A DNA stretch of 64,000 bases. Source: Rhizaria sp. SCN 62-66. Its lineage: Eukaryota. Position 1 is the first letter of the stretch. The number at the start of each line of letters is the position of its first letter. Where the stretch lies: contig MEDY01000120.1 in the NCBI GenBank assembly GCA_001724265.1, forward strand, positions 1-64,000. The letters are read 5' to 3'. This document shows positions 19,729 through 48,800 of the stretch, in pieces. A model generated the notes under the pieces. That model saw nothing but the letters and a program-made list of their open reading frames with translations. It had not been told where the DNA came from and searched no databases. Both the position numbers and the translations under genes were made by a program.

Positions 19729-22490
19729 ATGTCGTCTTCACAAGCCGCAAGCGCTGGCTAGGCCATCGCTGCCGCACCCGCCGCCGCCGCGCCCGCCGCT
19801 GCCGCCGCCGCTGCCCTTCCCGCCGTTCCGGCCGGCTACTCCGTGATTAAGGAGGGCCAGGCGTTTGTGCTCGTCCCCAAGGGCAACAAGGTGTTTTACA
19901 ACCCTGTGCAGGAGTTCAACCGTGACCTCTCGATCCTCGTCCTCACCCAGTTCGCCAAGCTCAAGGCTGAGGAAAACGATGCGCGCAGTACGTCAAACGC
20001 TTAAAACGACGTATATGCTTCAACATACCGTTAGATATTTGTGTGGTCTATTTGCAGCATTTCTTTATTCTCTATTGCACTCATATGGTAAAGCTTTGTA
20101 TCCACTCTGCGATCCGCTCACGCACTTGCCACCACACTCTCATTCCCGCCCACTGATATTTCCCTGCCACTAATCCTCAAACAGTTGCCGCCTGGCGCTC
20201 TCGCCGCGCCGCCGACCTCGCCAAGGAGGCCGCCAAGTCCTCCGCCGCCTCTGGCGCGCCTACCGACGCCGACGCCGCCGCCGCAGCCGCAGCCGAGGCC
20301 GAGGCCGCCGCAGCCAAGCTTCCTGTACCTGCCCGCATGCAGTACAACGGGCTCCGCGTCTTCGAAGCGCTATCGGCGTCGGGACTCCGCGCCATCCGCT
20401 ACTTTAAGGAGATCCCGGGGCTGCAGACGATCCACGCCAACGACTTGGACCCCGCCGCCGTGGCGAGCATCATGCGCAACGGCTCCTTCAACGGCCTCGA
20501 TCCGACCCGCTTCATCGCCTCGCAGGTACGTCGCGAAACAAGAGATATATATCCAAATTTTTTTGCACTTTAAAGTATGAAATGATTATAATCATAATTA
20601 TTTACTTGTTATCTCTCTCTCTATCAAATTTCATTGCAAAAACAAGTTTATCTGTATGCTCATTCAACTTGATCTCTCTTTCTTCTTTTCTTGCTCCTCT
20701 CACGACACGACACGACCCGACACGTTAAACACAGGGTGATGCGCTGACAGTGATGTACGCGAACCGCCCCACGTCGCAGGCGGAGCGCTCTGCCGCCACG
20801 GCCGCGGCGAAGGCCCTGGACTCTGGCTCCCTCGCCCACTGCAACTTCGATGGGACGCCTCTGCCCCCGCCGGGGCTTAAGGTCTCCAGCCTGGGGCTGC
20901 AGCCGTGGGACGTGATCGACCTCGACCCCTACGGCTCGGCCGCACCGTTCATCGACGCGGGCGTGCAGACGGTCGACGACGGCGGGCTCCTCCTCATCAC
21001 GTGCACCGACATGGGCGCGCTATGCGGCAACCACCTCGAGACGACGTTCGCCAAGTACGGTGGCATGCCGGTCAAGACGCACGCCTGCCACGAGGCCGCC
21101 GTGCGGCTTGTGCTGGGCATGGCCGACCAGGCCGCGGGCCGCTACCAGCGCGCCATCGTGCCGCTGGCGGCCTTCTCGATCGACTTCTACCTGCGCGTGT
21201 TCGTACGCGTCTATGCGCAGCCGGCGCAGAGCAAGCTGGCGTGCGGCAAGCGTGGGTACGTGGCATATTGCACCAAGTGCAAGACGAGCAAGAGCTTCAC
21301 CGCGGCCAAAGTCTCCACGCGCCCTCCCCCCGCCGCTGCCCCCGCTGCTGCTGCCGAGCAAACAGCTGGCGTTCACGATAACACTGAGTATCGTGGCAAG
21401 AAGAACAACCGCAAGAACAACATGAAGCAAAACAACAACAAGCAGAACTCTGCGAATAATAAGAACAAGAGCATGACTGACGTTGATGCTGTTGCCACCG
21501 AGGGTGCCGACAACGACGACGACGACGATGACGCTGACGCTGAGAACACCAACGACGCCGCTGCCCGCGGCACCGAGCTGAACCCCTGGGAGCTCAACGG
21601 CATCGCCAACGACGAAGTGCACAACCTGCGCTTTACGCCCTCGCTGCTGCCCGCGGACGTTGCCCGCTGCTGCGCGCACTGCGGCGGCGCCGTCAAGCTC
21701 GCTGGTCCCATGTGGCTGGCGCCCATGCATGACCAGGCGTTCGCGGCGCGCTGCCGCGGCTACCTGCGAGAGAACCGGGCTAAGTTTGGCACTGCTGCGC
21801 GAATCGAGGGCTTCCTCACGATGGCCATGACCGAGCTTCCGGACGCGCCGCTGTACTGGCTGCCGTCGTCGCTTGCCAACGTGCTGCACTGCCACACGCC
21901 CACCGTCACCGCCGTCGCCAACGCCGTCCGCAACGCCGGGTTCGAGTACAGCGAGACGCACTGTGCACCCGGATGCTTCAAGACCAACGCCCCCGCCTCG
22001 TTTGTATGGGACCTGATGCGCGCGCACGTCGCCACGGTGCCGGCGCTCAAGCTGCCCGTGTCGATGGGCCTGTCCCGGGCACAGTTGCTCGCGGGCCTGG
22101 GCCACTCTGCCACTGCCACTGCGACGGCGGCGGCGGCTGCGACGGCGCCCGCGCCTGGTGTGGCGATCACTAAGGAAGATGGCACCGTCGTGACTGTGGT
22201 GGAGGCCGAGGCCGCTGACAAGGAGGATGCCCGCTTGGAGGCTGCTCTGCGCTCTGAGTCGGCTGCTTACGCTGCCGAGCTCGAGGCCGAGGCCAAGACC
22301 AGCGCCAACAGCGCCGCCGCTGCGGCGAGTGCGAGTGAGCTGACGGCTGAGGAGAAAGCCAAGGCTAAGGCGGAGGCAAAGGAAAAGGAGCTCGACCGCC
22401 AGAACAAGCTCCAGAGCCTCTCCTTGTCTGTCGTCAATACCATTGCGGCGAACCGCGCCACGGTGGCCGCCGCTATCACCAGCATGACTC

Positions 22491-22537
<47 letters not shown>

Positions 22538-23522
22538 GACACTTCTGTCGTGAACGTGGCTGCCCTTGTGGAAGAGCTGGCCAAGAGCGGCAAGGCGCCC
22601 GGAGTAATTCTTTTGGCCCAGCCCATGACGCACAGCATCGATTTTAGCGCCAAGGGAGCCGGCGCCCGCGCCGCTGCCGCCGCTGCGAAGTACGTTTAGA
22701 TATTATTTTAAGGTCGCCATCGATATTGACATTCGTTTATTGTTTATTGCTATGTTCTTGTGTATTTATGTGTTAATTGACTTGTTATCGAGTTTTTTCT
22801 TTTCAAAGTCTCACATTGATGCGCTCTAAACCCTCTTTTGACACTCTTCCTACGCGTTGCTTCACGCTCGCATTGAACCATCTTGCTCTCTTCACATTGC
22901 TTTGCTTTGCACCTCTGTCTCAACAGGAGTGGCAAGGCTGCGACGACGACGGAGAGCGGCAAGCGCGTGCGCGTCCACTTCCCCAACCCGACCCCCTTTT
23001 GGGGCCCCAAGGCTGCTGCTGGCATCTTTGCCTCCGACAAGACCTACGACAACCCGAACATCGCGACTGTAACGGACAAGACGGCCGCGGAGGAGGCCGA
23101 GGCCGCGGCTGCGATTATGGCGGGCAACAAGGGCGGCGTTAGGTACGGCTATGCTTCCGATATCATCGCCTATATATCACGACGTGATAAATCAGCGATC
23201 ATAAAAGAGCACGATGATGACAAGACGAAGACTTGAACAACTCGAATTTGCATACTCCTCGCTTATATTGCTCCTATGTTGGCATTTAGCAATTGATATG
23301 TATAGATCGCATGAAAATCCATTTGTATTCTGACCATTACCCGCTCACTCGAATATCTATGCCCTTGAATCTTTGTTTTAAACTCTTTGCAGTGGCGGTG
23401 ACCAGACTGCCGAGATCGTTGCGTCCATGGTTGCAGCTCAGCGTGCGAAGCAGCTTGCCAACCAGGCCGGCAAGAGCAGGAAGCGCGCCGCGCAGGGACC
23501 CCCCAGCACTGACAACGAGTGA
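19729..23522 (+). CDS. TRM1: tRNA (guanine26-N2)-dimethyltransferase, ~966 aa; exons 19729-19987, 20185-20525, 20735-22689, 22927-23142, 23393-23522; in-frame TAG at codon 11
   Basis: Motifs IKEG..VFYNPVQEFNRDLSI, FEALSASGLRAIRY, ANDLD, DVIDLDPYGS, GGLLLITCTD, CHEAAVR, SIDFYLRVFV, CTKC..CAHC, GPMW, ELPDAPLY, SETH, KTNAP and FPNPTPFWGPK. Four in-phase GTACG introns; ends in TGA. Confidence 0.95.
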
Positions 23523-24025
23523 ACTCACTGGAGCTCGTAGTGATGATGAAGGTCTTATCTAAGTTGCTTACAAGAGTGAAGGGCCAGTGTTTGTTTTTTA
23601 GAACATGATTATAAGATATATACAGAAGCTTTAAGATTAATAACGAGTCAAAACAATATAGCATTATTTAATTGTTCTCCTTCTGTCATAATACTCTGAA
23701 ACAATAAGATATGACAGAAATATCTCTTGTTTAGTGGTAGATTTGATGTGTGTAACAGAGAGTGTGCGAGCGAGTGACGTAACGGATGGACTGAGCCGAA
23801 AGTGGCACTTCTATTTGCATGTGGTATGAAGCGATTTTACCGTTGACTGAATTGAAACGGACGCACAAGTATTTTATGTAGTATTTAGTATCGATTTTTT
23901 AATGCGTATGTGAAACATCGAAGTCTAGTGTGCTTACCAAGTCCTTTGCTTCTGCCTCTCCCAACTCGCGCTTGCTGCCCTTGTTCGCCCCACTTTGGCA
24001 GCGCTGCGCCGCTCGGTTCCGTCCC

Positions 24026-24576
24026 ATGCAACCCCTCGCGTCGTCCAAAACGATCTACTCCGACACGACGACGTACGTCAAGGCGGACCCCTCTGCGACC
24101 GAGGTCATCTTCGAGGCCGAGCTCTCTGCCAGTGAACAGGCAGCCGTCAACGCGCAGCTCGTACGTCCCAATGTCTCTTTCCTCAACAAAGTGTCGCTAT
24201 ATATTCCTAAACACGTGTGGGTTCTGACTCTAACATGTTATAATTTCTATTATATTGTGCCTACTGACATTTTTTTGATATGCGCTTATCTGTGATCTTG
24301 TACGTGTGTTTCTGGTTGTCTGGTTTGTTTCAGGACGAGCTCCGTTTCAAGAACGAAAAGTACCTCCGTGCTCAGGCCGACCTCACAGGCATGCTCGACG
24401 AGTTTGTCCAGGCCGCGCTCCGCGAGCAACCCACCGCTGCGCAGCTCACCGGCTTTGCTGTCGACTATTTCGCCGTCCAACGCAAGCAGTTTGCGTCTGC
24501 TCCTAACAGTGCCAGCAACAACGCCAACGGTACTGCCAACGCTGGCGCTGGGGCTTCGAGTGTTTCCACGAAGTGA
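24026..24576 (+). CDS. RIIAD1: RIIa dimerization/docking-domain protein (RIIAD1-like), 125 aa; exons 24026-24160, 24334-24576
   Basis: LSASEQAAVNAQL|DELRFKNEKYLRAQADLTGMLDEFVQAALREQP..LTGFAVDYF fits the RIIAD1 pattern. Phase-0 GTACG..CAG intron; ends in TGA. Confidence 0.75.
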
Positions 24577-24990
24577 ACGAACACACTGATATCATGTGTA
24601 TATGCATGTACAGTATCCCATCATAGGCTTTTGGGATGCGGTAGAGTTTGGTAGCAGGCTGCTTTGCGGAGGGAAAGCATGTGTGAGTCAGGCCACGACG
24701 TGGTAGCCGTTTTGGCAAACCCGGCAATTGGCGATATTAACGCGCGTCTGAGAATTTAATGCTTGGATATTTTTATAAATCTGCGCCGAATACATAGTTT
24801 AGAATTGAATTTACCCCGCCAATGTTTAGTCGTCATGAGTTGTGCGCTCGGAAAGAGGGTTAATGGCCGCCATTTCGAGTGACCGTGGGCAGCGTCCAGT
24901 CCGACTCGGACCGGGGGCAAAGTAAAGGGAGACGATTAACTCTGCAGTGAGAAAGGGGCGAGGAGACGTCGTCTAGTGACTCATTTCTCG

Positions 24991-26445
24991 ATGAAGTTTC
25001 TTCTTAGTGTGTTGGCCATTGTTGTGGCGGCATTTTGCGTCTCTGTTGAGGGTGCTATGTCGCAGGCTGAGGCTCAAGCCAAGGCTGAGGTACGTCAACA
25101 AAAGCAGCTCTCTTCTTTCTCCCCTTTCTCTCCCTCAAGCGCTCTCTCTTTTATATACCACACTGCTAACGCGCTCACTTGATTGCATTTGCTGGATTTT
25201 ATGGATGTTATTTGTTTTTACAGCTCGACGCGTCGCGCTTCACCGCGTACGTGGACCGCTTCTACCCGGGCGGCCGCGAGGGCCCCCACAAGGACACGAT
25301 CGCCATGATCGCGCACGGCCTGCGCCGCCAGGACATCTCGCTGGCGTCCCTTGTCCAGGTCGCCGAGTCCATTACGGCCATGACGCACGCCCACGCGGAG
25401 GCTGAGGCGGAGGTCGACATGGAGGCCGAGCTCGATGTCGAATTGGACAATGAGCTTGAGGCCTCTACTGAGGCTGAGGTTGAGACTGAGGCTGAGCTTG
25501 ATTTTGAGCTCGACGCCGAGGCTGACACTGACGCTGACGAGGAGGCTGACGTTGACGCTGAGGCCCAGGCCGCGGCCGACGCCGAGGCTTACGCCGCCGC
25601 CGAGATCTTCACTGCCGGCGCTATGGAGGCCGAGGTTGACGCCGAGGCCGAGGCCGAGGCCGAGACCGAGACCGAGACTGCCGCGGTCACCGACGCTAAC
25701 GCTGAGACTGAGCAGGAGCAGGAGTACGAGACCGGCGCCGACGCCGACGCTGACGCTGACGCTGAGGCTGAAGCTGAGGCTGAGGGCGAGGCTGAGGGCG
25801 ACGAGATGTCTTTCCTAGAGAAGCCTCCCTCCGAGAGCACCGCCCCCGCAGCCTCGGGCCCCAACGGCTCCACCAAGTCCGTCGAGACGGCCGGGAACCC
25901 CGCCGCCGCGGCCCCCGCCGTCGACACGGCTGCGCCCGGCGCCGACGCCAACATGCGTGGCCCCAATGGCTGCCTCGTGCACAACGGGCTCGAGTGCAAT
26001 GGGCAGCGCGCGGGCAAGTGCGTGCAGAGCATCTGCCACTGCATCGCCGGCTGGACCGGCATCCGCTGCCAGGTACGTGTATTATCCTCGATCAGACTCT
26101 TGCCGCTCCTGGCGCTATCACTCGGATGGCAAAATGTTATAAATGTGAAGATATCATGTTTGTTCCGTTCATTATGGACATGAGCGTTATAATAGTTGAT
26201 GTTTATTTTGCATTTACTCTTATTGGGCCTAATTTTACTTCATAACTCGTTCATTTATTCTCACTTATATTCTATTTGTTCTTTCTTGATGCCTTCTTGT
26301 TGCCTCCTTTTGCGCGACTACTGCTCTATCTTCCGTCTTCTAGGTCGAGTGGTCCCTTGCGCGCCTGAACCCCTACACCGGCCTGGCCGAGGCCACTCCG
26401 GAGTGCGGCAACACGGTGTCGCAGTACCTCTCCACCTGCAACTGA
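24991..26445 (+). CDS. Secreted protein with an acidic Ala/Glu/Asp linker and a C-terminal EGF-like domain, 349 aa; exons 24991-25089, 25224-26072, 26344-26445
   Basis: Signal peptide MKFLLSVLAIVVAAFCVSVEG, an (AE/AD)n tract and a six-Cys EGF pattern CLVHNGLECNGQRAGKCVQSICHCIAGWTGIRC. Two GTACG introns; ends in TGA. Confidence 0.8.
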
Positions 26446-27070: not shown

Positions 27071-30000
27071 TTAGTGCGCGCCCTCCTTCCCCTTCTTGTG
27101 GTGACCGTGGGCGTGGGCGGGCGCCCGCGGCTTATCCAAGTCGCCGTCCATGAGCGCCTTCGCCAGCGCGGGCGGCAGCGGGGCCGGCTCCGCGATGGCA
27201 GGCAGCGCCAGCGCCCAGGCCTGGAGCTTCTGGTAGTAGTAGGGCGCGAAGAAGCGGTAGTAGCTGCGCCAGACTGCCCAGACGACGAACATGGCCATGA
27301 CGGCAAGTAGGAAGACGAGCCAGAGCAGAGTGGAGTTGTAGGAGAACTGAAGCAGCCCGTACGTGTCCGGGGAGAAGGATGAGAAAAAGACTAGCGACAG
27401 GAACATGTAGACGGCGATGAACAGCGCGATGCCGATGGCCCAGACGAGGACGGAGATCCAGGAGATAACGTCGCACTCGGCCAGCATGACGCAGTTGACG
27501 AGCACGATGACAGCCCAGCACTGCATGTTGCCGATGGAGAACAGGTCGAACGTCTTGCCGGAGCCAGCGTCGATCTCAGGCCGCATCGCGCTGTAGAAGG
27601 TGAAGGCGTAGACGAGCACGGACTGGATCGTCGCAACGGTGAGCCAACGCAGCAGCTCGGGCACGGTATAGCGCGTCTCAAGCTTGTTGTACTTGTACGC
27701 CAGAGGCGCGCGCAGCAAGAGCCGTTCGTGCGCGTCGCGGTCGAAGATGCCGATCGAGAGCGGCTGCAGCGAGGTGAAGGCGAGGTTGTAGAGCGACATG
27801 AAGTAGGAGCTCGCGACGATCTGGCCCGAGTAGTTGTCCGAGAAGGCGAACCACACGACGGGCAGCACGAAGACGAAGTTCTTCCACAGGGACAGCATGA
27901 CGACCTTAGACGTGCGGTTGAGGTTGTAGCGGCCGTGTACAAACAGCAGCCGCTGCAGGTGCGCGAACCGGTGGACGACGTAGTCGGCGGACATGGCGGC
28001 GTGCGAGCCCTCTTTGCCGAGGATGCCGATGCCGACGTGCGCCTCCTGGATCATCGACACGTCGTTGGCGCCGTCGCCAATCGCCAGGCACGTGTGGCCG
28101 AGCTCGCGCTTGACAAGCTGCACCACCAGCGCCTTCTGCTTGGGCGCGGAGCGGTACGTCACGATCGTCGCGCACGCCAGGAAAAAGCGCAGGAACTCCT
28201 CCTTGCAGTGGGTCAGCGCCGTCTCGAGCGTGTTGCCCGACAGAATCGCCACGAACACCAACGGCTTCGTCGTTTCGCCACTCTCAGAGGCGGCGTCATC
28301 GCTATTGTTGCTCTGAGAAACCTGCTTGTTCTTGCTCTTGTTCAGAGTGGCCATCTCGATGCCCGCCTCGTCGGCGGCATTGCTCCCGCTGCGGAGACTG
28401 CTAGCGTTGGCGCCAGCGTTAGCGTTGTTGTTGTTGTTGTTGGCGTCATTGGCACTGGCGGGCGCGGGACTGAGGGGCAGGTCGATCGCTTCGTCGTCGC
28501 CGGCGTCCGAGGGCCTCGACACCCGCGTGCGGATGCTCTGGCTGGGCTTCCCGGCGGCCTCGATGAACGCCAGACAGGCCGTGAGCGAGCGGCGGCACAC
28601 GTCAGCGCGCAGCTCGGCCTCCTCCTCGGGCGGCAGCACTATGGCGGGGACGGCGGCGCCCGCGGCGGCGGGGCTCAGCACTGGTGAACCCGTGACGGGG
28701 CCGATCGGCGACGCCATCGCCGCCAGCGCCTGCTGCTGCAGCGCCAGCGCGTCGGGGTTCTGCGCGATGTAGCGCTCCAGCCGCTGCGCGTGCTCCTCCT
28801 CGGTCGGCGTCGCGGTCACGTACAGCCTAGAGTTGGTTGTGAAAAAATCAGTTTGAGTTATATCGATGTGAGTTTGGTGCAGTGAAATGATAAACTCTGA
28901 ATAAATCAGTGTGAAATACATATAATTCATTGAAATTGTGCTAGTTTAGTATGAATTGCAATAGATATACAGCAAGCGACATACCTGGTCATGTGCTCCT
29001 GGAGGATGTGGCACTCAGCCGAGATGGTCTCGGCCGTCTCGCGCTTGTCGCCGGTCAGCACGACGACCTTGACGCCCGCGGCCAGTAGCGCGTCGACGGT
29101 CTCTGGCACGCGCTCCTGCATCTGGTCATTGACAGCCGAGATGCCCAGCAGGTCGAGCCCGCGCTCAAGCTTCGCGAACGCCGCCTCCTGCGCCGCCTCA
29201 CGATCGCCCAGCGAGGTATTCGCCGCGGAGTACACCGCGAACCAGTCGTCGAACTCGGCGGCGGCCATGACGCGGCCCGCGAGCACAAGCGTGCGGGAGC
29301 CCGTGGCCGCGAACGTGGCGGCCTGCTGCTCGGCGCGCGCCAGCAACGCGGCGCCCTCGGCCGACTCGGAGTCGCACATGGGCAGCACGGTCGAGTCCGC
29401 GCCCTTGATCAGGAGGTAGATCGCGTCGGTGGCGTCGCAGCGCACGACCAGGTCGGACCGGCGGCGCGCCGAGCTGAACTCGAGCGAGGCCAGGACCGAA
29501 AAAGTCAGCACTGCGGCGGCGGGGACGGCGACGGTGGCTGAGGCCTCGGCGGTGTGGGCGCCGAGCCCAGAGCCTGCGGCGGCGTCGCCAAGCCCGCCGG
29601 CGCTGCTGCTGCCGCCACCGTTGACGTTGACCTCGACGTCGAGGACATCCGGCGGCCGGGAAGTCACGCCGCCGCCGCTGCCGGAAGTATAGCCGCCCTG
29701 TTGGATGCCGAGCCCCTCGGTTCCTGGAATGTAGCCAGAGGACAGGGCTCCGTAGTCTTCGTCGGCGCCAGGCTGCTTGAACACGGACGCAGAAGACGAA
29801 CCAGCGGTATTGTTGTTGTTGTTATTGTTAATGTTAGCATTGAGAGGGCTCTTTTTGACGTCGTTGCTGTTGGCGTCGCCGCCGTTGTCATCTTCGGAGT
29901 AGCTCGTGCAGAGCAGCTCCAGGTGGTCGCCGAGACGGCGGAAGAGCATCAGCCCTGCGCGGTAAAAGGCCTCACACAGCGCGATCTCGTCGGGCGACTG

Positions 30001-33000
30001 CGACTGGAACTGCCACTGGCCCGTCTCGGCGTCCAGCACGGGCTGCACGCCGTTGTTGAGCAGCATGTTGTAGGCAAACAGCAGCTGCCGCTCGCGGACG
30101 CGGTTGGCGCGGAACCCCTCGGCCGCGGCAGCCGCCACAAGCGCCGTCTCGTCGGGCTGGAGGGCCTCCCAGGCCGCCGAGACTGCGGGCGGAGGCGCCA
30201 CGGCCTGCGTGGGGTGCGTAGTCGCGCGCGTCGGCCGGCAGTGCACCGGGGACAGCGGCTCGGGGGCGGAGGACGAGACGGGAGACGCCGCCGCGAACGC
30301 AGAGCTCTTGTTGCTGCTGTTGTTGCTGTTGGCGTGGAAAGCGAAAGGCATAGCCTTGATGATGACGTCGGCGAGGGCGTTGACCGTGGGCATGCCGGGG
30401 GTGCTCAGACTCAGGTTGGACGCGGAACCACTTAGATTGTGGCCCTCCGCGTCAGCGGCGCCGTCAGCGTTGGCACCCTTAGACTCGCCGTCAACAGCAG
30501 ACTTGTTGCTATTGTTGTTCTTGTTCTTGTCATCATTGCCGTTGGCGCCATCCTTGTTGTTCAGCCGGTCAGGCACGTCCTGGAACAGAGTGCCCGCGAC
30601 AGACACGTACGCCAGCTCCATCTTGTTCTGCGTGAGAGTGCCCGTCTTGTCACTGAACACGTAGTCGATCATGCCCAGCTCTTCGTTCAGCGCGCTCGTG
30701 TTGACGCGCATCGCCTTGGGCTTGGTCGAGGGCGGCATGTCCGGGTCCTTCCACAGGAAGCCCTCGTCCCACTCCATGAATTGGGCCTACGGTGAGGTAT
30801 AACACGAAAGCGATGAGAATTTGAGGGTAATATAAGCATGTGTTGAAAACAAGATAGTGAATTCGAATAAAATATGGTTAAACCCGCTGTGAAAATAAGT
30901 TTAACAACAATTCAAGATTATCAAAGCACATAAAATTTAAATGTAGAGAAAGCGTACCTGTCCGACTTTGACGAGTTCGATTGTGACGTAGAGCGAAATG
31001 GGAACCATCCAGGAATAAAGCACGTAATGCGTAAAGAAGGACAGCAGCCAGCCGACGAAGCCGCCCTCGTAGATGTCCATGACGTGCTCGAACTTGCTGT
31101 TGACGACGAGCGAGATGGACGGCATGAGCAGACAGAAGATGAGGTTGATGACCATGATGATGATGATGAACGTGTTGAGCTTACGTTCGAAGCGGCTAAA
31201 CTTAAACTGCGCCAAGTTACGGTTCAGCATCATCTTGGTCTCGCCGCCCGTGTACACGACGACGGCGTTGACAAAGGCCGTGTTGGCCAGAGATGAGCCG
31301 CGCAGCAGCAGCTGCTTGTGCGACAGCGAGTGCATGTACCTCCCCGCCCCGTCAGTATGGGCGCTGACCGCCGTCGCGGGCAGCTCGGGCACGATGGCCC
31401 CGCCGGCGGCGCCGGCGACGACAACTGCATTCGCGTTGTTATTGCTATCGATGCTCTCGCCCGAGTTGGGCGCGAGGGCGAGTGCGCCCTTCCACTCGTG
31501 CATGTTGCTCGACGGCGGCTCCGCGGTCACCGCGCCCTGCAGGTGCACGAGCCCCATGGGCTGGTGCAGCGCCAGTGTGGCCGCCGGCGACGACTTGGGC
31601 TTGGGCACGGCCTCGCCGTCGAGGTTGGCCGTGTTGACGAACGCCAGGCCGTCCGCAGAGGAGGACGACAACAGAGCAAGGTCGGCCGGGAACTCCTCCC
31701 CGTCCAAAATGCGGACGATGTCGCCGACGCGCAGGTTCGCCGAGGCGACGCGGTCCCACCACTGCACGCCCGCCTCGCGCGTGCTGCCAGCGCCGCCAGT
31801 CACGGCGCGCGCGGGCACGGCCGCGGTGACGGACCCGCCCGCGGATCCCCCGCCTCCTTTAGATGAGAGGCGCGAGACGGTCCGCGTGAAGGACGCGCGG
31901 CGGCCCGCGGCGCCTGTGTTGACGCCGCTCGTGCTGTGGTGGCCGCCGCCGCCGCCGCGGTGGGCGAAGGCGCCCAGGCCCAGGGCGACGCCGAGACGGG
32001 AGCGGCGCTCTGAGGCGGCGGCGGCGGCGTCGACGTTGCCGCTGCAGTCATTGCTGTTGTTGTTATTGTTATTGTTGCTCTGCTTGTGGTTGTTGCCGAG
32101 AACGACAGCGTCAGGGTCTGACTCCACGTTGTTATTGTTGTTGTTGTTGTTACTGCCGTCGACCATAGTGACTGTGGGCAGGCCTGCCGCGGCCACCGTG
32201 GCCACGGAGCCGTCCTTCGCATGGCCGTGCCCGTGGGCAGAGTGACTGTGAGCGCTCTCGACGAGGGCGTAGTCGGGCTTCGGCAAACGGGCCAGCACGT
32301 CGGCCTCGGTCACGCCAGTCACGCCGTTGCGCTCAGCCTGAAAACGACAGAAAAGATATGAAAAGATATGGAACGTGAGGTATAGGCACTCCAAGAGAAA
32401 ATTAAATGTAGATATAAAGTGACATTTTAAAAGCCAATACATCATACCACCTAAAGACATAATTGTCACTCCAACAAGAGATAAATCGATGATTTAGCAT
32501 CTGAAACGTACGCGGTCGAGCAGGGCCTTGCAGACGGTGGAGCGCGTCCTCAGCACGAGGTAAGTACGCGCGTTGGCGGCGTGGTCGGCGCGGTGACGGT
32601 TCCAGTCCTCCTTGGCCTCCTTGATGGCGGTGACGGCGAGGATGATGAGGAGCGGGATGAGCGACGAGTAGATTGGGAACGGTGACACCCCGGGAATCAG
32701 CTGGATGATGACGATGATGAGGAAGTATAGGTTCGCGATGCGCCGGAACTGTTCGAACAGGTTCAGCGGCAGGAAATCCCACCACCGGTACTTTGAGGTC
32801 TTGATGAAGTTGGATGCGAAGGCCTTGCCGGAGCCGTCGCCGCCGCGGTGGAGCTCCCGCTGCTCCTGCTCCTGCTCCGGCGTCAGCTGAGACGGTGAGC
32901 AACCTCCGTCAGCGTGGGGGTGACCGTGGGCAGCGGGCTGACTGTGGGCGAAGTGACGCAGCTCGGAGACCGTGAGGGGCTTGTTGGCGGGGGCGTTGTT

Positions 33001-37500: not shown

Positions 37501-38448
37501 GCTGCCCCCGCTATTGTTGCCTGCAAAGCCGCGGAGGGAGCTGCGGGCCGGGAGCGCCGCCGCTGCTGCGTTAGGGCGAGAAACGGCGCCTGCATGCGCG
37601 CGCGCATTGCTCGCGCTGTTGTAACGAGAGTTGGTGTTACTAGGTGGAGATAAAGGGGCGTCTGTCTCGGGCAAAGGAACAAATGACCACGGACTCGCGC
37701 TGTTGCCGCTATTAGCACTGTTGTTGTTGTTGATAGCGGATGCGCGGACGCGGCTGACGGCGCTGGGGCGGGCGGCGGCGCCGCTAGCGCTCGCGTTAGA
37801 GGCGCTAGAAACGATGGCACTGTTCGTGTTTGAGACGGGGCGAGTGATGCGAGACGCCGCCGCAGTCGCCGCTGTCGTGGTCCTGTTAGCGCCAGCGCCA
37901 GAGCCAGCGCCAGTGCGCAGGCCAGTGCCAGAGCGGACGCCGGTGGGTGCGGCGCCGCCAGCAACGCGAGCGGCCGCGCCGCCGCCAATAGCGTTCGAGC
38001 TCGTGCCAATACTGTTAGAGTAGCCGTCGTCCGCGTACGGTACGTTCGCACTGGACATACTACTGTTGTTGTTGCTGGTGTTGTTGCCAGAGAGCGACTG
38101 GCGGCGTGCGTTGGCGCGCGCGAGGGCGGCGGCGCGCGCGGCGGTGGAGCTCGGCGCGCCCGCACCGGCACTACTCGCACTCGCACTATTGTTACAGCCC
38201 GCACTCGCACTCACACGGTGAGCGCCTGGGCCTGAGTGGGACGGCGTGAGCGGGGTGACTCGGCTCGGCGCCGGCAGGCCAGTCGAGCCAGAGCCGAGCT
38301 GCGAGTGCGATTGCTGCGAGGGCGGACGGAGGCCGGAGGCGCGCGGAGCGGGAAGGCCGCTGGACGTGCTTGCAGTGTAGTTGCTGCCGCCGTAGCCCGC
38401 TGCGGAGGGGCGGGAGGAGCCCGCCATGGGAGGGTTGCTGCCACGCAT
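34569..38448 (-). CDS. LRRC40: LRRC40-like leucine-rich repeat protein with a long disordered N-terminus, ~1231 aa; exons 38448-35404, 35219-34569
   Basis: SGVLSLANCRLTELP, RWWEFVDLVTLDLSSN, many LxxLxLxxN repeats and two cap motifs (LEGNPLRAVP..GGATKLKLWLCSRL and GNPLRAVRPAVVAAGPVAVLRFLRERVP). Ends in TGA. Confidence 0.78.
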
Positions 38449-38744
38449 CGTCGGCAATGCTGAAGCCGCTTAGTTAGAGAAGATTTAAGAGGTCTTAAGA
38501 AAATTCAAAATAAGAAAATAGATATAAGTGTTAGAAATGGCTATATATGATTCTCACATGCGCGGTTGACGATTAGTTATGTGGGGACAGTCTGTTGTTT
38601 GAATGCTCCTCGAAGGTCGAGAGTCGTTGGGATGGAAAGGATGTCCAAAATTGCAATATATGATGCGTCATGGCTTGATCGTATAAGTTCGATCTGGATG
38701 CGTTTTGCGAAGTAAACCATGGCCAGAATACTAATATTCAAATT

Positions 38745-41700
38745 ATGTTTTCCAAATCTGTGTTCTTCCTGCCCCACAGCAATCCCCAACCTTCCCTCAG
38801 TACAGAGCAGATCCTGTCCGTCCTCATGAGCAGGCCCGCTGCCTCAGCAGCAGCCTTCGTCTCTGCCCCCGCTGCCACAGCCTTGCTTGCACCTGTAGCA
38901 GCGACGGCGGCGTCGCTGGCAGAGGAGCGCGTGCGCACGGCGGCCTTTGCGGCGCGGCTGCAGGCCATCCAGGCGCTCGCTCGGGGTGAAACACTGGCCG
39001 CGAGCAGCAGCAGCAGCAACCACAGTGGTGCCAGCGGCAGTACCGCTCGCGCGAGTGCCACCAGCAGCAGCACCAGTGTGGCCGGCCGTGGCAGCAGCGA
39101 CAATAGCAGCGCGCGCAAAGCTAGCCTGAGCCGCAGCGCAGCTGTCCCTGGTGCTGTCCCTGGTGCTGCCCCAGCTGCTGCTGCGTCCGCAGGCTCTGGC
39201 GGGGGCATTTTGACCGAGCTCGAGTGCTTTGCTGCTGCCGCAGTCGTCGCTGTTCTGTTGGGCCGGCGGTCGACGCGCTCACGGTCACAGTTGCATCCGC
39301 GGTCAGAGCTTACGAGTGACGATGCGGGTGCTGTCACTGTCGCGTATGCCAGCGGACACGAATGCCTCGAGCTGTCCACTACTGTGGGTGCTGCAGAAAA
39401 CAGCGCCGATGCTGAAGCTCGCATAAGTAGCAGCAGAGGCCACAGCAGCAGCTGCAGCTGTTATGACGCTGTGATCGCGCCTGCGCTCGAACGCTGTCCC
39501 GCTTGCCATCATGGCAATCGCCATAGCAGCAAAGGCAGCAGCAACAGCAGCTTTAGCAGCGGCAGCAATACAATGAGTGATTGCAGTCAGCAGCAGCGGT
39601 CACAGTGTGAACACTGGCGGCCGCCGCGCTGCGGCTGCTGCGCACAGTCCCTTGCGAGCGACAGCGACTGCTCACGGTCACTTGTCAGCAGCAGCAGCTA
39701 GTCGCGCCCGCAGCAACGCCCGCGGGCAGCTGGGCGTGATGCCACAAAGACGCACTTCTTAGAGTCAGCAATCTATTTCAAGCCACCTTCTCCTTTTGAC
39801 TCGGCGTCATCAGCCACGAACAACAGCGGCAACGACGACAACGGCGGCAACGCGGACGGCGATGGCGACACCGGTGTGTCGTCCGTCACTGCGCCCGCGG
39901 TCACCGCGCTCTGGCTCGAGTGTGGGTCCGTGCCGCATCACGCATCTGCCCACAGTCACTCAGCAAGTTACAGTGGCCCTGAAACTGAGGCCGACACGGA
40001 CACTGATAGGGGCTTGCAGTGGGCTGAGGTGTGGGTGACTGTGAGCAGCCGAATCAGCTCGCGATCCCGCTTAATTGCCGACGGCGCCTCCTTAGATATG
40101 GACGGCGCCCCTTTAGACTTGGATGAAGATGTAAGTGCGAGCTTCTGTGTTGCGCGCGTGCCGCTGCCGCCAAACTCGCAGCTGCCGCTGCTGCTGCCGC
40201 CTCAGAGCAACGGCGCGCACGCAAGCAGCGGCAACAGCGGCGTCGTAGGGGCGAAAGGGGCAAAGATGAGCAGCAGCAGCTACTGGGGCGAGGTTGGCGG
40301 GAAGGCGCGCGCTCATGTGCTCACTTACAATCTAAGTACCTCCAGCGACAATCGAAACACGAATGCTCTATATCGCGGCAGCAATCAGGACGCATCACGC
40401 GCGAGTACTACCAACATTCTAAGCGTCTATGGCAACGACATCAACAGTCCCAGCCGCAATGAAAACGCGTCCAAGAACGATCGCCGCAATCACGACAACA
40501 GCAACAACAGCAATAACAGCAACACAAGTCTTGTAAGCAAGCTGGGATTGGGACCGGGTCAAAGGCTGATGCCGAGGCCGCTGCCGCCGCCGCCGCCGCC
40601 GCCGCTGCCCCAGTCCCAGCCACGTCAGCCCCAGCAGCAACAACAGCAGCAGCAAGAGCTTGCGCGCGAGTGGTTGCGGCAGCAGAACAGGCAGCGGCTG
40701 CTCCGCGGCGGCCGGCCCATTGCCACAGCGACGACGGCGACTGCGGTATCAACCGCGGTGGCAGCGAGCGCTGCCTTTGGTCGCCGAGCCCCGGCCCCCC
40801 CTCTGAGCAGCACCGGCGCGAACGGCGCAAGCTCTCGCAGCCGTAGCCGCAGCGGCGACGCCAACGCCGACTGCGAGTGCAACGGCACGCGCAGTGCTGC
40901 GGCGCCTGCGGTGCGCAGTGGGAGTTAGGACGCAAGCGGTCGATATGGCTACTTGGCACACTCGCGCTCGCGCTCTAACTCTAGCTCTCGTGACCGAGAC
41001 CGTGACCGTAACCGTGAGCAAGCAGCGAAGGTAAGTGGGCGCGCAGGCAGCGACTGTGAGCGTGTGCGCGTCAAAGCATCTGCCCACAGTCGCTCACCTA
41101 GTGCTCACCGTCCCTCTCACGGCCACGCTCGCAGTCTGAGTCGCAGTAACGGCATCGCCAGCCGCAACGCTGTCACGAGTGCTACTGTCACCGTGGCGAT
41201 TGCGAGCGATACGGAGGACTGCGATGATGATCGTAACAACAGTGCTGCAGATGCCGACGATGGATTAGAGCAGCATCTACAAGCACAACCGCAGCAACAA
41301 CAGCAGCAGCAGCAGCTGCAGTCGCAAGTTGCTGGGTCTGCTTCTGCTGCTCTTGATTACTATGCTGCTCAAGACACTGACAACGGCGTTAATGTCCATG
41401 AAGGCGAAGGCACGTTTCCGCTTGACGAGGCCGACGTCAGCAACATTGCAGACGCGGAGGCGGCTGCGCTCATGCATGCCTGGCTCGCGGAAAGTCAGAG
41501 CGCGTATGAAGACACTGAAGACGCTTCATGCGGTCAAAGTCAAGCCGGCTCTAATCATGTCGATGCGATGCAAGAGCAGCAGCAACAGCAGCAGCAGTAG
41601 CAGCAACATCACAGCGCTGAGCAGGAGCAGGAGCAGGGGCAGCACCACAATAGCCTAGACCGTGATGTGTTGAGAGCGCTGGACCTGCTGGGCCGGGCGC

Positions 41701-44374
41701 CGCGGCCGCAGCCGCTGCTGCCGCTCCTGTTGCGCTGCGCACAGTCACCTGCTGGCCGTTTGCAGTCACATGCTATGAGTACACAGCCATCTGCTGCCGT
41801 TGATACAGATGTATCTGTGAATGACAACGCTGCCGTCACGCGACTACAGCAGCAGCAGCCGCAGTACAGCTACGACGCGTTGTTTGAAGCCGGTGCAGAC
41901 AACGCCAAGGGCTACGGTGATCCCAACGCTGCTGCTGGTGCTGTGAATCCCGCTCTGGACACGGCTGTGGCGGCCGCTGTGACTGCCGCCTTCGCGCACC
42001 CGTCTCCAAAGCCTAGCACTCGCGCACGTGATAATGCGGCTGCGTGGCAGCAGCGCGGGGGCGGCTTGGCTTTGAATGCCGGTTTGACTTCTCCCATTGG
42101 CGGTTTCTCATTTCTCAACAGTGACAACAATGGCGTAGCTTCACCTGGCGGCTTAACTTCGCCGTACTTTATTCGCAGCAACCTGCAACACTTCGACAAC
42201 AACAGCAATAACAACAACCTTTACGCCAATAGCACTAGCAACAGTCGGAGCGGCAGCAGCGGCGTCCACGACGCCAGCCACAGCGGCGGCCTCCCGAGCG
42301 ACTGTGAGCACACTGCGGGCGGCGAGTCGTTTCTCTACTCGCCCGCGCCGCATCAGAGTGACCACATCAGCAAAAACAGCAACGGCGACAGCGGTGTCAT
42401 TCGCGGCAGCAGTCACAAAAGTCCGCGCACCGAGCTGATGCACGCGAGCACAGACACAAACACGCCTCTGAAGAACGACCGCGACGTTGACTGGAGCAAC
42501 GACGACGCTGGCGACGCTGGCGCTGGCAGAAACTGCGACCCCGCGCTGGACGAGTGTCCGCCGCAGTCAAGGCCGCAGTCGCTGCTGCCGCGGCCCACGG
42601 CGAGTCCGTTCGCTGCCGCTGCCAGTGCCCACAGTCACTCTCGGGCGCAGTTGCAGGCGCAGGCGGGGGCGCATTTGCGGTCTCAGCTGTGTGCTGCGAC
42701 AGGACTGCCACAGCAGCTTGTGGCCGCTCCGAGTGCAACCAAAACGCATGTGCAAACACAGACGCAAGATTCCTTTGCTCCGAATGTTCCTGGGTCAGTT
42801 CTTGCTCCTGCCTCTGGCGCGGCCTCAGTGTCCGACGCAGTCACCGCAAGTGCCTGTGCGCCTGTGAATGATTGTGCGCCTACTCGTGAGACTGCAGTAT
42901 CTCCGGTAGCCTCCGCAAGTGAGGCCGACACCGACATCAATCGCACTGCTAGCGCCCCTGCAACGCCGACGCCAACAGCTATGGCCCCAGCGTCGCCTGC
43001 AACGGCCCCCATCAGCTCCACATCCGCATCCACGGCCACGGCCACTGCCACGGCTACTGCGAGAGCCAATGCCAGTGCCAATATCGATAACGCCGCCGCA
43101 CCGTCCCCGGCCGCGCTGGCAATGGCCCAGGCCCGCGCCGCGGCCGCGCGCGTCGCCGCCACCGCCGCGGCCGCCGCCGCCCGCGTCACCGGCACTCGCG
43201 CTGGCGCACTGCGCCCGCGGTTGCGGCTGCGGCGCCGAGCGTAGTGCTCGAAGTGACGGCCGCGAGGATCGCTGCCAACGCGCACGTCGGTGTCGGGGGG
43301 CTAGCGCTATCGTGGGTGCGCAATCTAGCGCCACCGCCGTCCATATCAGACCTGAAGCAACGGCAGCCGATGCCGAAGCTTGACTCTCCCGCGACTGCTG
43401 CGGCTGAAACTGCAACGGTGACCGCGAGTGACTGTGAGCGGGCGCGGTGGGGCGGCGCGGACGAACTTGAGAGCATCAGCAGCAGTCTGAACAGCAGCTT
43501 GAACGGCATTTGCAACGCCGACGAAGACAGTAATAGCTCTCAAGCGGCCTGTCTTGCCAGCAATGAAAGTGGCAGTGGCAGTGACATCAGTGGCGATAAG
43601 AGCAATGAAACTCCCACTCATGCAAATGCAGCTGCGGACCACAGCGGCGAAAGCGCTGGTGTTGCGGATATTGCAACTGATACTGCAGGCGCAAGTGCGT
43701 GCAACAACAGCCACGCTGGTGCTGATGAAAACACACACATAGTTGCAGGTAATGTCGTCTGCACCGGCAGCGATGCTACCAGCAACCACAACCATGACCA
43801 GGACAACTGCGGCGACTTTGACAACAGCAGCAGACTGTTCAGCAGCATTAGCGACGGCGACAGCAGCACTAGCAGTGAAAACGCGACCAACGAGTCCGGC
43901 AACAACAATCGCAGTGGAAGCAGCGCTGCCGTCACGACGGCTGCTGCAACTAAACCCACAATCACGAACGTTGCGCCCACACAAGCTTCCACACCGGTGC
44001 CCATGATCGCTGTCACTGCGCCCCCGGCCGCTCGGCTCAAGCCACTGCCTTCTCCTGAGACTGTCATTAAATCACAATCAAAAGCACAATCGCAGGCTCC
44101 TTCCCAGTCGCAGTCGCGCGTGTGCGTGTGCCCGTCTTTTGTCCCCGCGTACTTGTTGTCTCCAAACACTCCAATAACAACGCAGACGGCAGCAGAGGCA
44201 GACAGCGTTAACGCACGCACCAATGCAGCGAATGCTGTCAGCGAGACAGTGTGTGTGGTGCACTACTCGCTCCGGCTGCGGCTGCGGCACGAGGCCGCGC
44301 TGCTGCTGGGGGTTAACGAGAAGCTCCGCCAGCGGCGCCAGCGCAAGCTTCGGCCACAGCAACAACAGCTTTAA
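38745..44374 (+). CDS. Large hypothetical low-complexity protein (~1870 codons) with three in-frame TAGs (39699, 40926, 41598) and one frameshift near 43210; start uncertain
   Basis: Four ORF-track segments lie in the same frame, separated only by TAG, with no TAA/TGA and no AT-rich intron-like gap. The coding composition continues in another frame to TAA 44372-44374. Confidence 0.6.
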
Positions 44375-44945
44375 CGAGATTTGTCACTTAATCAGCTTGC
44401 ATACCACCTGCAGCGACACACCTACAAACATGAGCAAATAACATATAGCACTTGTTACATAAAACCAACCCGGAATACATACAACTTTACGTTTTGAACT
44501 ACACGAACGAAATAAACATACACATCGCAATCACGACAGCCAGCACAAGAGTACCCCTCTGCTCGTGCCTGCAAATTCTCTTAATCACGCCGTACACCGC
44601 GGGCAGCTTCTCCGCGAGCTCCCCCCCCCCCCCCCCCCCACGCCGCGCTGGCGAACTAGCGACGCGTACGACTAGTCGAGCCCCGCCAGCACGGACTGCA
44701 CCGACGCGCGCTCCTTAGCCAGCAGCGCCGGGTCCGCGCCGGCCTCGGACGCCGCGCCGCCCATCTCGGCGTCGGACTCGGCGCAGTCAGCGCGGCGGCG
44801 CGCGCCGAGTCGCGCGTTTTGCGGTGTCGAGCGCGAGCTCGTCGGCAATGCCACAGAAGCGCGAGAGAAACTGCCGCTGCCACTTCCACGCGGCCGTGAG
44901 GGTGCCCATGGCGGAGAGGAGCAAATTTGCTTGTGCCAAGACCAA

Positions 44946-44965
44946 CATCATCATCATTATCATCG

Positions 44966-45054
<89 letters not shown>
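44946..45054. repeat. (CAT/ATG)n trinucleotide microsatellite, ~36 units
   Basis: Seen directly, with two variant units. Confidence 0.97.
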
Positions 45055-45055
<1 letters not shown>

Positions 45056-45617
45056 GTCGCCCAGCCGCGGCTCACGCAGCAGCCCACGCTGCCGCGATCG
45101 CGGCCGCCACCGCCGCCGCCGCCGCGGAGGCAGCGGTCGCGAGGGCAGCCGCTGCGGGGACAGCGGCCGCCGAGGCAGCCGATGGCACGTCCGCGGACGC
45201 TAGCGCGGACGTGCCATCAGCTGCCCGCGCGCGCACACGCAGGTAGCGCGTGCGCAGTGCCAGAGTACAGTCCGGACACTGCTTGTTGATCGATCTGAAC
45301 CACTTGCCAGGCCCTACAACGATAGCAAAGCACGTCTTTGGGTCCACATTGTTGCACCTAAAAGGATTATCCAGCTGGTGATCCCAAGCAACAGCGTAGC
45401 AATAAGCAACCGGGATCTTCCGGACGCGCACATTTGCGTCCCGAGCAACGCGAACCAGAAAACCATCAAACACCGACAGAACAGCAGTGTGGAGCTTATT
45501 AACACGCGTAGAGGCCTTTAAGTCGTCAACCGAAGGAGTAGTGCGCTTGACTTGAAAGAAAGTCGCGCGCATGTCAATTTCGACTAGCTTTGCTGCGCCT
45601 GCAATCTCGGCCTTGCT

Positions 45618-45666
45618 CTTGTCCTTGCCCTTGTCCTTGCCCTTGTCCTTGCCCTTGTCCTTGCCC
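45618..45666. repeat. 12-bp tandem repeat CTTGTCCTTGCC x~4 (GKDK peptide on the minus strand)
   Basis: Seen directly. Confidence 0.9.
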
Positions 45667-45880
45667 TCAGGCACAACAATCTTGGCGATGTGATACGCGT
45701 CAACAGCCTCGTGGCATTAGCTCTTAAGGCGCCTACAAGAATCAAAATTGACCTCGTCAAGCGCGGTGGAGACTCCGTCCTTTGTAATGGCACGTGCTAA
45801 TCATTTGCTAACCTGGATAATTATTTATGTTCTGTTGATTATAGCTCCACCAGAAAAGTATACACGTGTCAACGCGGCAC

Positions 45881-48800
45881 ATGGACGCCGACGAGCCGAC
45901 CGCGGTTTTGGCTCTCGCCACCAACGAAGTCTTTCTCGTCTTCCGCGACAGTACCGTCCTCATCCTCCATGAAGGTTTGTCAAATACGTCACCTTTGTAG
46001 TAACTCAGTAGAAATGGCGCTTGCATTTCCCCACATGCACTGTATCCCCCTCACCCCTTGCTCCTTGTTATCCTCCTCTCGTGGCTTCATTGTGTTTAGA
46101 CCCCAGTTACTTCTCTTTCGCGGTCGCCGCAGCCGACGGCAGCGGGCTCCGCAGCCTCACCAAGCACGTTTCGGCCTCTTGTCTTTCCTCTTTGCGCCAC
46201 AAGCTCGCCCATGCAGTCGCAGCACGCAACTCTTTGTGCGTATACGCGCCCTCTCTTATCATCCCGCCTCCACTTGTACTTAACGCAAACATCGCAAACA
46301 CGATTCGCAATCCTGCTGGCGCTGTTCCCACTCGCGGCGCGGGCGCTAACCACAGTGTGGGGGCTGTCAGTGTGTGCGAAAGTGTGATTGACTACGCAGG
46401 TGTCTATCAACACATTTGTTCCACAACAGCTGCAGCAGCAGCAGCAACACCTCACAACCTCAGCACTCCGAGCGCTGCTGTTGCTGCGGCGGCGGTCGAG
46501 GGCATTGCTGCACTGCTGCCGCCGCCGCAGCGCCTGGCCGACTGGCCCCGCCTTGTTGCCGACGCGTTTGCCTGGCCTCAGCAGCACCAGCAGCAACAGC
46601 AACAACAGCAGCAACCGCAAGAGGCTGTGAGCAGTCGGAGCAGCAGCAGCAGCAGCTGCAGTCGCAGTGGCAGTGGCTCTCACGACAATAGCGGAGTGAC
46701 TGTGAGCAGGTGGGCCGGCCGCGCGCTGCGCCAAAGCGACCTCGCAGCGCTGCCGCTGCTTGCTCCCACGCACAGCCACGGCCACTGCCACGGTCACGGT
46801 CCCTCTGGTCTTTGGGGCGCTCCCGGCGTGTTTTCGTGGATGACACTGACTGTGCCCCTGACAACGGGCAGCACGCAAGTCAAGCCGCGTAATCATAATC
46901 ACAACGGCGTCGACGAGCACCAAAGTGAACCCGCCGATGGTAATGGTCACGATGCTGGCAATGTCAGCTCTCTGGCAAGCGAACTGCATCGAATGCAAGC
47001 CGCCATCGCGCACTCGAACACACTCATCAATGCTAACACCGCTGACAACACCGCTTTCGCGCACAACCCTCACACTGCCGCTGGCGCCGACGCCAACGGC
47101 TATGCGTAGCAGCAGCGCGCTCCGTGCGCGCAATGGGCGCGAGTCGCTGTGCTGCGGCTCGACGGGGGGCTGCCACCGCGGCCGGGGCCCGTGGCGCTGC
47201 CGCCGCTGCTCCCGCTCTCCATCGCCCCCGGCAGTCCTAGCCGCAGCAGCAGCAGCAGTGAGGGCGAGAGTGCTTTTGCGAGTCGCAGCGGCGCTACCGC
47301 TGCTGCTGCTGCTTCTGCTGTCGCAGTCGGTGCAGGGCCGTGGCTGTGCGCATGGGCTCTACCGCCTCTGGAACAGCCCCTCTCACACTCGCGCTCGCGC
47401 AGTCACGGCCACGGCTACGGCCAGAGCCGCGGCCTTAGCTCCCGGCAAGAGCGTCACGACGCGGCGATTGCGCGTCTGGCGCTCACGCTCGCGCAGTCAC
47501 TCTCTCTGAGTCCCGACAGCCCGCACAGCAGTCAGGCGAATTGCAGTCAGGCGAGCAGCGGGGCCCACGCGGAGCACGGCGACGGCAGCGCCAGATGCAG
47601 CGCGAGATGCAGCGCGAGCGAGAACGACTCTCTCGCCACAGAGACCGCTGCCGCCGCCGCCGCCGCTGCCGCCGCCGCCGCCGTGCGCATTGCTGTCGCG
47701 GCCGCCGTGGCCGCGGGCGCCAAGGTCTGCGCCCTGTCGCTGCCGCTGCGCGGACTTGTGGTGGCGGCGGCGCCCTCGCAGACGGGCGCGCGCCTCGTTG
47801 CCTGGCGCAGCAACCGCCGCGACTGCAGCAGCAGCAACAGCGACGGTGACAGCAAAGCGCACAATGCCGCCGGTGCTGCGGCGGCGAGTCGCAGGGCGAG
47901 TGCCGGAGGGGTGTGGGTGCTTGAGCTGTCGCCGTGCGCGGGCACTGGCGGGCCGGGCGCGGGCATGCTGGGCCCCGGGTCCTCACTATGGGCGCTCAGC
48001 GCGGCCGGCGAGGGTGTGCACGGTCACGCCGCGGGCTGGGAAAGGGTTGGGTACAAGGTATGCGTGCGCTCGCAACGTTGATGTAATATCAATGAAATTT
48101 TAGTTGAATCAAATTGAATGATTTTTAGTGAATTGTGTGTATTTATTATCCTGGTTCAACACAATAGCCTCATTTCAACCTATCTATCTCATTTTAATTC
48201 GATTACTGTGCCCCTCACACTGCACCACTGCAGAGCCGCGCCCTGCTCGAGGCTCTGGCCCCGGTGTGCGGCTTTGCGGCCGCGCTTGAGACCCGCTGCT
48301 GCGACGCCGCCTACGCCCACGCTGACGCCGCGGCCGTGCAGTCTGGAGCGGGGTCTGGAGCGGGGGGGGCGCGGTGCGGCACGATGCAGCAGTGCGTGAC
48401 GTGTGGCGCGTTGGAGCCCGACTACACGGCCGCGCTGACCGCGATCGTGACGCCGCCCCCTGTCTCGTCGTCGTTATTATTCAACAACAACGAAAACACG
48501 GACCCAGGCCTGCCCGGCCTCGACTCTGGCTCTACTCTCTCCACTGCGAGCGAGACTGCGGGTGCATGTGCGAGTGCGGGTGGTAAGTCAGCTGCTGCAG
48601 CCGCGGCGGCTCGGGCGGCGGCCGCGGCGGCGGCCGTGTTGGCGCCGGCGCGCGTGGTGGCCGAGCAGTCCGTGCCGGGCGTGGGGCTGTTCACGCTGCA
48701 CGGCGACGGGCGCGTGGCGGCGCGGTATTACGACAACACACTCGTCAAACTCACTGACGACCACGCTAACAGCGGCGACCTCGGCCGCGGCAGTCACGGC

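Follow-up and report, generated by a model that had tools for sequence, protein, structure and literature searches.

Is the stop codon UAG translated in an uncultured eukaryote whose DNA recurs in wastewater metagenomes? The question is raised by a stretch of 64,000 nucleotides at the start of contig MEDY01000120.1 (assembly GCA_001724265.1, Rhizaria sp. SCN 62-66), here called the window, in which five TAG codons (at positions 19759, 39699, 40926, 41598 and 47107) stand in frame within three genes. One of these genes encodes the tRNA methyltransferase TRM1; the other two, which we call genes A and B, are of low complexity. A preliminary description of the window, made from the sequence, had proposed a nuclear code in which UAG is sense, probably glutamine, and UAA and UGA remain stops. 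Following up this proposal, we find that TAG lies in frame inside three otherwise intact genes and ends none of the genes modeled. A single 64-kb stretch cannot prove that TAG is translated. Nevertheless, we lean toward the view that it is decoded as sense in this organism, whether through reassignment or through efficient readthrough. Below we describe the five codons and the genes that carry them, and weigh this view against three explanations that retain the standard code.

In-frame TAG codons in three otherwise intact genes

Each of the five TAGs is in frame with the open frame that flanks it. Across the approximately 15,400 codons of our models for about 20 genes (the total is our own sum over these models), in-frame stops amount to five TAG, no TAA and no TGA; every other in-frame stop that we met in real genes is intronic. 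An open-frame scan of the window that does not depend on gene models returned eight stops flanked on each side by 200 or more open codons. Of these, TAG 11977, TGA 59338 and TGA 37463 are off frame or lie antisense to a stronger gene, and TAA 32496 is inside an intron of the P4-ATPase gene. Those left after this filtering are exactly the four TAGs of genes A and B. The scan replaced an examination of local codon scores around every stop, which discriminated too poorly between cases in low-complexity sequence.

Other TAGs that might be mistaken for interruptions or gene ends belong to introns. Those closing Pfam-supported open reading frames (ORFs) at 22697, 35368 and 13343 are all of this kind, the first two directly following a GTACGT donor and the third being the intron's own acceptor, and TAG 46009 is likewise intronic. 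The five in-frame TAGs, by comparison, sit in GC-rich exon sequence away from the AT-rich introns, with no intron signal around any of them and no AT-rich intron of 125-270 nt at the sites. We considered tiny introns ending at the TAGs, since the TAGs at 39699 and 40926 each have a GT 18 nt before them, and rejected such introns because these donors are unlike the GTAYGT type, occur at two of the five sites only, and would define introns shorter than any verified one (all at least 125 nt). The frame counts and the open-frame scan uphold the original observation that five TAGs, unaccompanied by TAA or TGA, interrupt three otherwise continuous GC-rich coding regions, and the statement that intron signals are lacking around them is also correct.

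Local contexts differ among the five sites. The TAGs at 41598 and 47107 stand in Gln runs and are each followed directly by CAG, the one at 39699 comes after four AGC (Ser) codons, and those at 40926 and 19759 are placed amid Ser, Gly and Ala codons. The next base is G, T, G, C and C across the five, with no shared motif or common readthrough context. These contexts bear on the possibility that UAG is generally a stop but is passed at these particular sites by programmed or leaky, context-dependent readthrough, which would yield full-length protein at a reduced level. CAR-YYA is a readthrough context, which the TAG-CAG pairs at 41598 and 47107 partly resemble, and a low number of sites would be expected. 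On the other hand, the five contexts have no motif in common, three such events in gene A would leave very little full-length product, and the lack of TAG terminators (see below) would go unexplained. We therefore regard site-specific readthrough as improbable.

Gene A (38826-44374, plus strand) is a low-complexity ORF rich in Ala, Ser, Gln and Asn, extending from ATG 38826 to TAA 44372 and recognized by frame statistics and codon scores. Between 38679 and 43199 its frame contains three stops in 1,507 codons, all of them TAG, against 34-66 in the other five frames, and its codon score exceeds that of every other frame in most 300-nt blocks between 38679 and 43178. AT-rich dips between 38796 and 44343 do not exceed 98 nt, and a Pfam search with the gene returned no family. 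The three TAGs are codon 292 (39699-39701), codon 701 (40926-40928) and codon 925 (41598-41600), the last within a CAG/CAA run. Farther downstream the reading frame switches within 43193-43256, most plausibly at 43193-43213, and the old frame is closed past this point by TAG 43242 and, four codons later, by TGA 43254. The switch, which is either genuine or produced by an indel in the assembly, falls in a GCC-rich stretch (43139-43212) left uncovered by the contigs listed. A GC-rich intron was considered at this position; reading by eye revealed no acceptor in the right phase.

Gene B (45881-49514, plus strand) is of the C5orf34 type. It comprises three exons (45881-45974, 46100-48057 and 48234-49514), defined by reading their splice sites, and ends in TAA 49512. 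Its TAG (47107-47109) is in exon 2, at about codon 367 of about 1110, and is the single stop in the 652 codons of its frame between 46102 and 48057, versus 5-19 in the other frames. The gene had been described as ending at TGA 48079, which proves to be intronic (48058-48233). Past the TAG lie about 745 open codons, intact splice sites (both introns of the gene are intact) and a conserved C-terminal domain of the C5orf34 type. Relatives of exon 3 are few: four matches among 1.84 billion representatives, the best with an E value of 1.7e-11. Three of these four score above the curated cut-off for the C5orf34 C-terminal domain (PF15016); the window's own exon 3 gives a weak, sub-threshold score of 20.9 against a cut-off of 27 bits, and Pfam identified no other family in genes A and B. 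A homologue search with exon 2 (TAG read as Q) was swamped by low-complexity words and found none in 7,999 scored candidates.

A further gene-level constraint comes from TRM1, the tRNA m2,2G26 methyltransferase gene (19729-23522, plus strand), which we modeled from Pfam TRM matches and splice sites as five exons (19729-19987, 20185-20525, 20735-22689, 22927-23142 and 23393-23522) ending in TGA. Codon 11 is TAG (19759-19761, 30 nt past ATG 19729), and from 19762 the spliced model stays open for 955 codons. A Pfam TRM match (E 3.6e-9) in the 75 residues that follow the TAG starts at profile position 3, 27 residues past the TAG; therefore, translation must start before about 19840, and no in-frame ATG lies between the TAG and the match. 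Because the only in-frame ATG upstream of the domain is 19729, which precedes the TAG, TRM1 needs an ATG upstream of its TAG. The change from an AT-rich leader to GC-rich sequence also coincides with ATG 19729 rather than with the TAG. In each of three metagenomic TRM1 relatives (78, 53 and 57% identity), the exon-1 ORF opens with M and reaches the same VP-G motif after 13-52 residues, and the N-terminal extensions of two of the three are rich in Ala, Ser and Pro, like that of the window. When the N termini are aligned, the TAG falls in this low-complexity extension, opposite gaps or Ala. An alternative start provided by splicing was sought by reading 19369-19840 by eye and rejected: the sole acceptor after the TAG is the TAG's own AG, and no exon that starts with ATG joins it in phase.

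Two further features of the TRM1 region are recorded here. The divergent minus-strand gene next to TRM1 starts at ATG 19368, leaving a 360-nt spacer (19369-19728) between the two, and the TRM1 leader includes short upstream ORFs from ATG 19624 and 19635. In P0005, the nearest metagenomic relative, the TRM1 ORF (683 aa) is unbroken across the positions of three introns of the window (20526-23392), which implies intron gain or loss between close relatives.

We compared contigs of four public runs over 20 kb of the window, a span that does not include TAG 19759. The TAG at 39699 was found with no differences in contigs of runs X1 and X3, which belong to different studies, and in JGI metagenome contig L001. 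A contig of run X4 (40745-41567) is identical around TAG 40926, and one of run X1 (45686-47636) around TAG 47107. X1 is possibly the source sample and so may not be fully independent; the runs with identical TAGs at these three sites represent at least two studies, dated 2015-2025. The remaining gene A codon, TAG 41598, is in a CAG run at which the contigs listed are interrupted, and no independent contig among them covers it; the joints listed come from CAG/GCC repeats. The TAGs at 39699, 40926 and 47107 are not assembly errors.

Transcript data touch both genes. A contig from the polyA-RNA library of run X6 lies in gene A at 42225-42448, downstream of all three TAGs, and two contigs of the same run flank the TAG of gene B (46520-46869 and 47137-47430). 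A different explanation under the standard code is that RNA editing removes the UAGs, by A-to-I change (UAG to UGG) or U-to-C change (UAG to CAG). A-to-I editing of premature UAG to UGG operates in some filamentous ascomycetes, and editing of this kind would be specific to UAG and would hit few genes. Opposing it, no RNA contig has another letter at the sites, though no RNA contig among those listed covers them, and the TRM1 tree does not place the organism within the fungi. Editing would also leave the lack of TAG terminators unexplained, and Trp within the Gln run at 41598 would be odd. We consider this explanation very improbable.

Gene ends and nonsense alleles as the main alternative

If UAG were sense, it should not end genes, and in the window it does not. 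The modeled gene ends number 16 or 17, the uncertain one being that of a doubtful minus-strand ORF (45072-45716), and comprise nine TAA, seven or eight TGA and no TAG; the earlier count of 16 ends (nine TAA, seven TGA, never TAG) is thereby reproduced. Were TAG normally to end 25%, 20% or 10% of genes, the chance of finding none in 17 would be 0.008, 0.02 or 0.17, respectively. Within this small sample, then, UAG is never a genuine end while UAA and UGA are both used, as in the known UAG-only codes. Naive tallies of ORF ends overcount terminators here because ORFs run on into AT-rich introns and end there in TAA or TGA; we merged such run-on ORFs into longer genes before counting terminators. 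Apparent separate ORFs at 11158-15855, 2404-6133 (minus strand) and 50701-52982 (minus strand) are in this way exons of longer genes.

Reading UAG as sense explains the intragenic TAGs, the TRM1 start and the lack of TAG ends all at once, at the price of a very low usage. Under this reading UAG would be translated rather than terminating, and UAA and UGA would be the only terminators left. The simplest machinery for this would be a CUA-anticodon tRNA combined with an eRF1 whose recognition of UAG is poor. We infer the passage of ribosomes through these codons, the tRNA and eRF1 changes and the amino acid, with the mechanism borrowed from known cases. Low usage could mean that the reassignment is young, or that decoding is inefficient and tolerated only at weakly constrained positions. 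For the amino acid, Gln is the simplest guess and is not established: CAG and TAG differ by one transition, and two of the sites lie in Gln runs. The suggestion that the contexts point to Gln accordingly holds for 41598 and 47107, two of the five, and not for 39699, where the neighbors are Ser, or for 40926 and 19759, where they are Ser, Gly and Ala.

Several observations weigh against a change of code. TAG is rare, at five in about 15,400 codons and about 20 genes, and none of the five is at a conserved column, so homology fixes neither the decoding itself nor the amino acid. The best-conserved genes have no TAG in 6,373 codons, compared with four in genes A and B together (2,972 codons). These two low-complexity genes, with four of the five TAGs, score only about 0.1 bit per codon, versus 0.42-0.70 in conserved genes. 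The preliminary description's own caveat, that TAG is rare and limited to poorly conserved segments, is thus well founded. Usage is far below that described for two UAG-reassigned protists in PMC5304391 (204 UAGs in 126 genes of Iotanema spirale and 384 in 71 genes of the rhizarian exLh). Independent confirmation of the TAGs in DNA extends to three of the five sites, no RNA contig among those listed spans a TAG, and the terminator sample is just 16-17. Finally, ARAGORN detected no tRNAs in the window, Rfam gave no matches there, and eRF1 is not among its genes.

Much of this also suits our main rival explanation, which is pseudogenes plus chance. In this account the standard code applies; the TAGs of genes A and B mark young pseudogenes or nonsense alleles that have become fixed; translation of TRM1 begins at a near-cognate codon, or the TAG of TRM1 closes an upstream ORF; and the lack of TAG ends is chance or a habit of the lineage. 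A single-base nonsense mutation in the CAG-rich genes A and B gives TAG 50-58% of the time, and four TAGs of four therefore have a chance of approximately 0.06-0.11, which does not decide the matter. On this point the proposal of a UAG-only sense code had assumed a stronger TAG-only signal than there is; its other elements (in-frame stops that are TAG only, no TAG ends and no introns at the sites) stand. The frame switch in gene A resembles that of a young pseudogene, the codon scores of genes A and B are weak, their TAG-bearing parts match no Pfam family, and conserved codons are free of TAG. For TRM1, GTG 19843 or ATC 19765, both in frame and downstream of the TAG, could in principle serve as the start under the standard code. 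If TAG ends just 10% of genes, its lack among 17 ends has the chance of 0.17 given above.

Against this rival, three separate coincidences would be needed within 64 kb: two young pseudogenes with TAG lesions only, an intact TRM1 with a stop ten codons past its only usable ATG, and no TAG in 16-17 gene ends. A decaying pseudogene is expected to accumulate several kinds of lesion and to lose its frame composition. Genes A and B instead have TAG stops and one frame switch, located in an uncovered repeat, with no other defect and with no TAA or TGA in 2,972 codons; both retain the asymmetry of stop counts among frames. The splice sites of gene B are intact, as are the open codons and the conserved domain past its TAG. 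The TAG allele at 39699 is the one assembled in runs of different studies, and TRM1 is otherwise intact over its 955 codons. A very young pseudogene may still fit these observations. As an account of all three genes and of the terminators, we find the rival unlikely, if clearly a more serious contender than readthrough or editing.

The organism and its other genes

The window consists of GC-rich exons (third-position GC content [GC3] of about 0.8 in conserved genes) with AT-rich introns and spacers between them. Introns verified by reading their splice sites are 125-270 nt long and AT-rich, with YAG acceptors and donors that read GTACGT or, alternatively, GTATGC, GTTTGT, GTACGA or GTACGG. Pfam matches include TRM1, a P4-type flippase, a leucine-rich repeat (LRR) protein, a GH125 domain, a C26 peptidase, an acyltransferase and a ciliary inner-microtubule protein. 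This content points to a cellular, probably flagellated eukaryote. Its sequence is found in bioreactor, wastewater and activated-sludge metagenomes from several studies dated 2015-2025. We conclude that the organism is a cellular, intron-bearing and probably flagellated eukaryote, uncultured and belonging to metagenomes of the wastewater type. Its depth in public runs is a useful one, at about 35 for unique contigs of run X1.

The best named matches of TRM1 are fungal, at 45-59% identity. In a maximum-likelihood TRM1 tree of 24 rows, the window and P0005 (63% identity) form a long separate branch that falls outside a fungal clade supported at 97/95, with its position not fixed. On the basis of this tree we treat the lineage as unplaced, and do not put it inside the fungi. 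A protein atlas offered coarse taxa only. A metagenome scan with the neighboring LRR protein retrieved no relatives and, as its sole match, L001, a 2,610-nt contig that equals window positions 37934-40543 exactly. Prokaryote genome contigs, scanned with a P4-ATPase exon for eukaryotic sequence misplaced in MAGs, yielded only a bacterial P-type ATPase motif match (L002).

In the flippase exons at 29932-30001 and 31150-31308, contigs of runs X4 and X6 show differences from the window sequence that are mostly spaced by multiples of three. Such differences, mainly at third positions, indicate a second related population in the same kind of sample.

At 53205-62141 the window carries an uninterrupted ORF of 2,978 codons in which the GH125 alpha-mannosidase domain takes up the last 400 or so residues only. 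The remainder is low-complexity sequence with a GC3 of 0.82 and no stops of any type.

Between genes A and B lies an odd GC-rich block (44560-45720) throughout which no single frame runs. It includes 22 consecutive C residues (44618-44640), an extended repeat of CAT/ATC triplets (44940-45055) and the doubtful minus-strand ORF already mentioned, which ends in TGA and has no significant Pfam family. The block may be a degenerate mobile or foreign insert. Should another of its minus-strand frames be the real one, that frame would end in TAG (44670-44672).

Relation to known UAG codes

Four known codes offer points of comparison. In the fornicate Iotanema spirale, nuclear UAG encodes Gln and the stops are UAA and UGA, with the in-frame UAGs numbered above; in the uncultured rhizarian exLh, nuclear UAG encodes Leu, and the terminators are UAA (56) and UGA (15) (both PMC5304391). 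Phyllopharyngean ciliates have UAG-only reassignments of several independent origins, in which UAA is not reassigned (PMC11687900). In the aphelid Amoeboaphelidium protococcarum, UAR is Gln, making both UAA and UAG sense (cited in PMC5304391 and PMC11687900).

The pattern by which the Iotanema and exLh codes were established (PMC5304391) is the one seen in the window: in-frame UAG without UAA or UGA inside bona fide coding sequence, and gene ends in UAA or UGA only. With Iotanema the window further shares the dominance of UAA among the ends, a possible one-step origin of UAG from CAG and, as a prediction, a CUA tRNA and a changed eRF1. The two lineages are unrelated, and whereas conserved positions fix the amino acid in Iotanema, here there are five UAGs in about 20 genes and none is conserved. 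The likeness to exLh is that of a UAG-only change in an uncultured, non-ciliate protist, recognized from in-frame UAGs together with UAA and UGA ends. The 384 UAGs of exLh, however, align to conserved Leu, and nothing in the window points to Leu.

Phyllopharyngean ciliates resemble our case in that UAG is reassigned and UAA is not. Unlike ciliates, which have AT-rich genomes and tiny introns, the window has GC-rich exons and introns of 125-270 nt, and it shows no ciliate features. Amoeboaphelidium provides a parallel for a stop-to-Gln change in a non-ciliate lineage near the fungi, the group from which the best named TRM1 matches of the window come. It differs in that UAA, a sense codon there, is the commonest terminator here (nine of the 16-17), and the TRM1 tree does not set the window inside the fungi. 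In a literature search whose coverage does not include all journals, we found no report of a UAG-only code in a wastewater eukaryote or a similar lineage.

Our fuller reading is that an unplaced, probably flagellated eukaryote, common in wastewater reactors, is at an early stage of a UAG-only code in which the codon is little used and is tolerated chiefly where the protein is disordered; we hold this to be about as probable as its negation. If confirmed, it would be another case of the rare UAG-only nuclear reassignment, with an unusually low usage of the codon. Such reassignments are known from very few lineages, and each new one tests the coupling of UAA and UAG through eRF1 and wobble decoding. 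If the reading is true, standard-code gene callers would mis-annotate the genes of this organism. A case of such low usage would also bear on whether the capture of a stop codon passes through a stage in which the codon is rare, weakly decoded and avoided as a terminator, and the code of this organism would then represent a snapshot of stop-codon capture.

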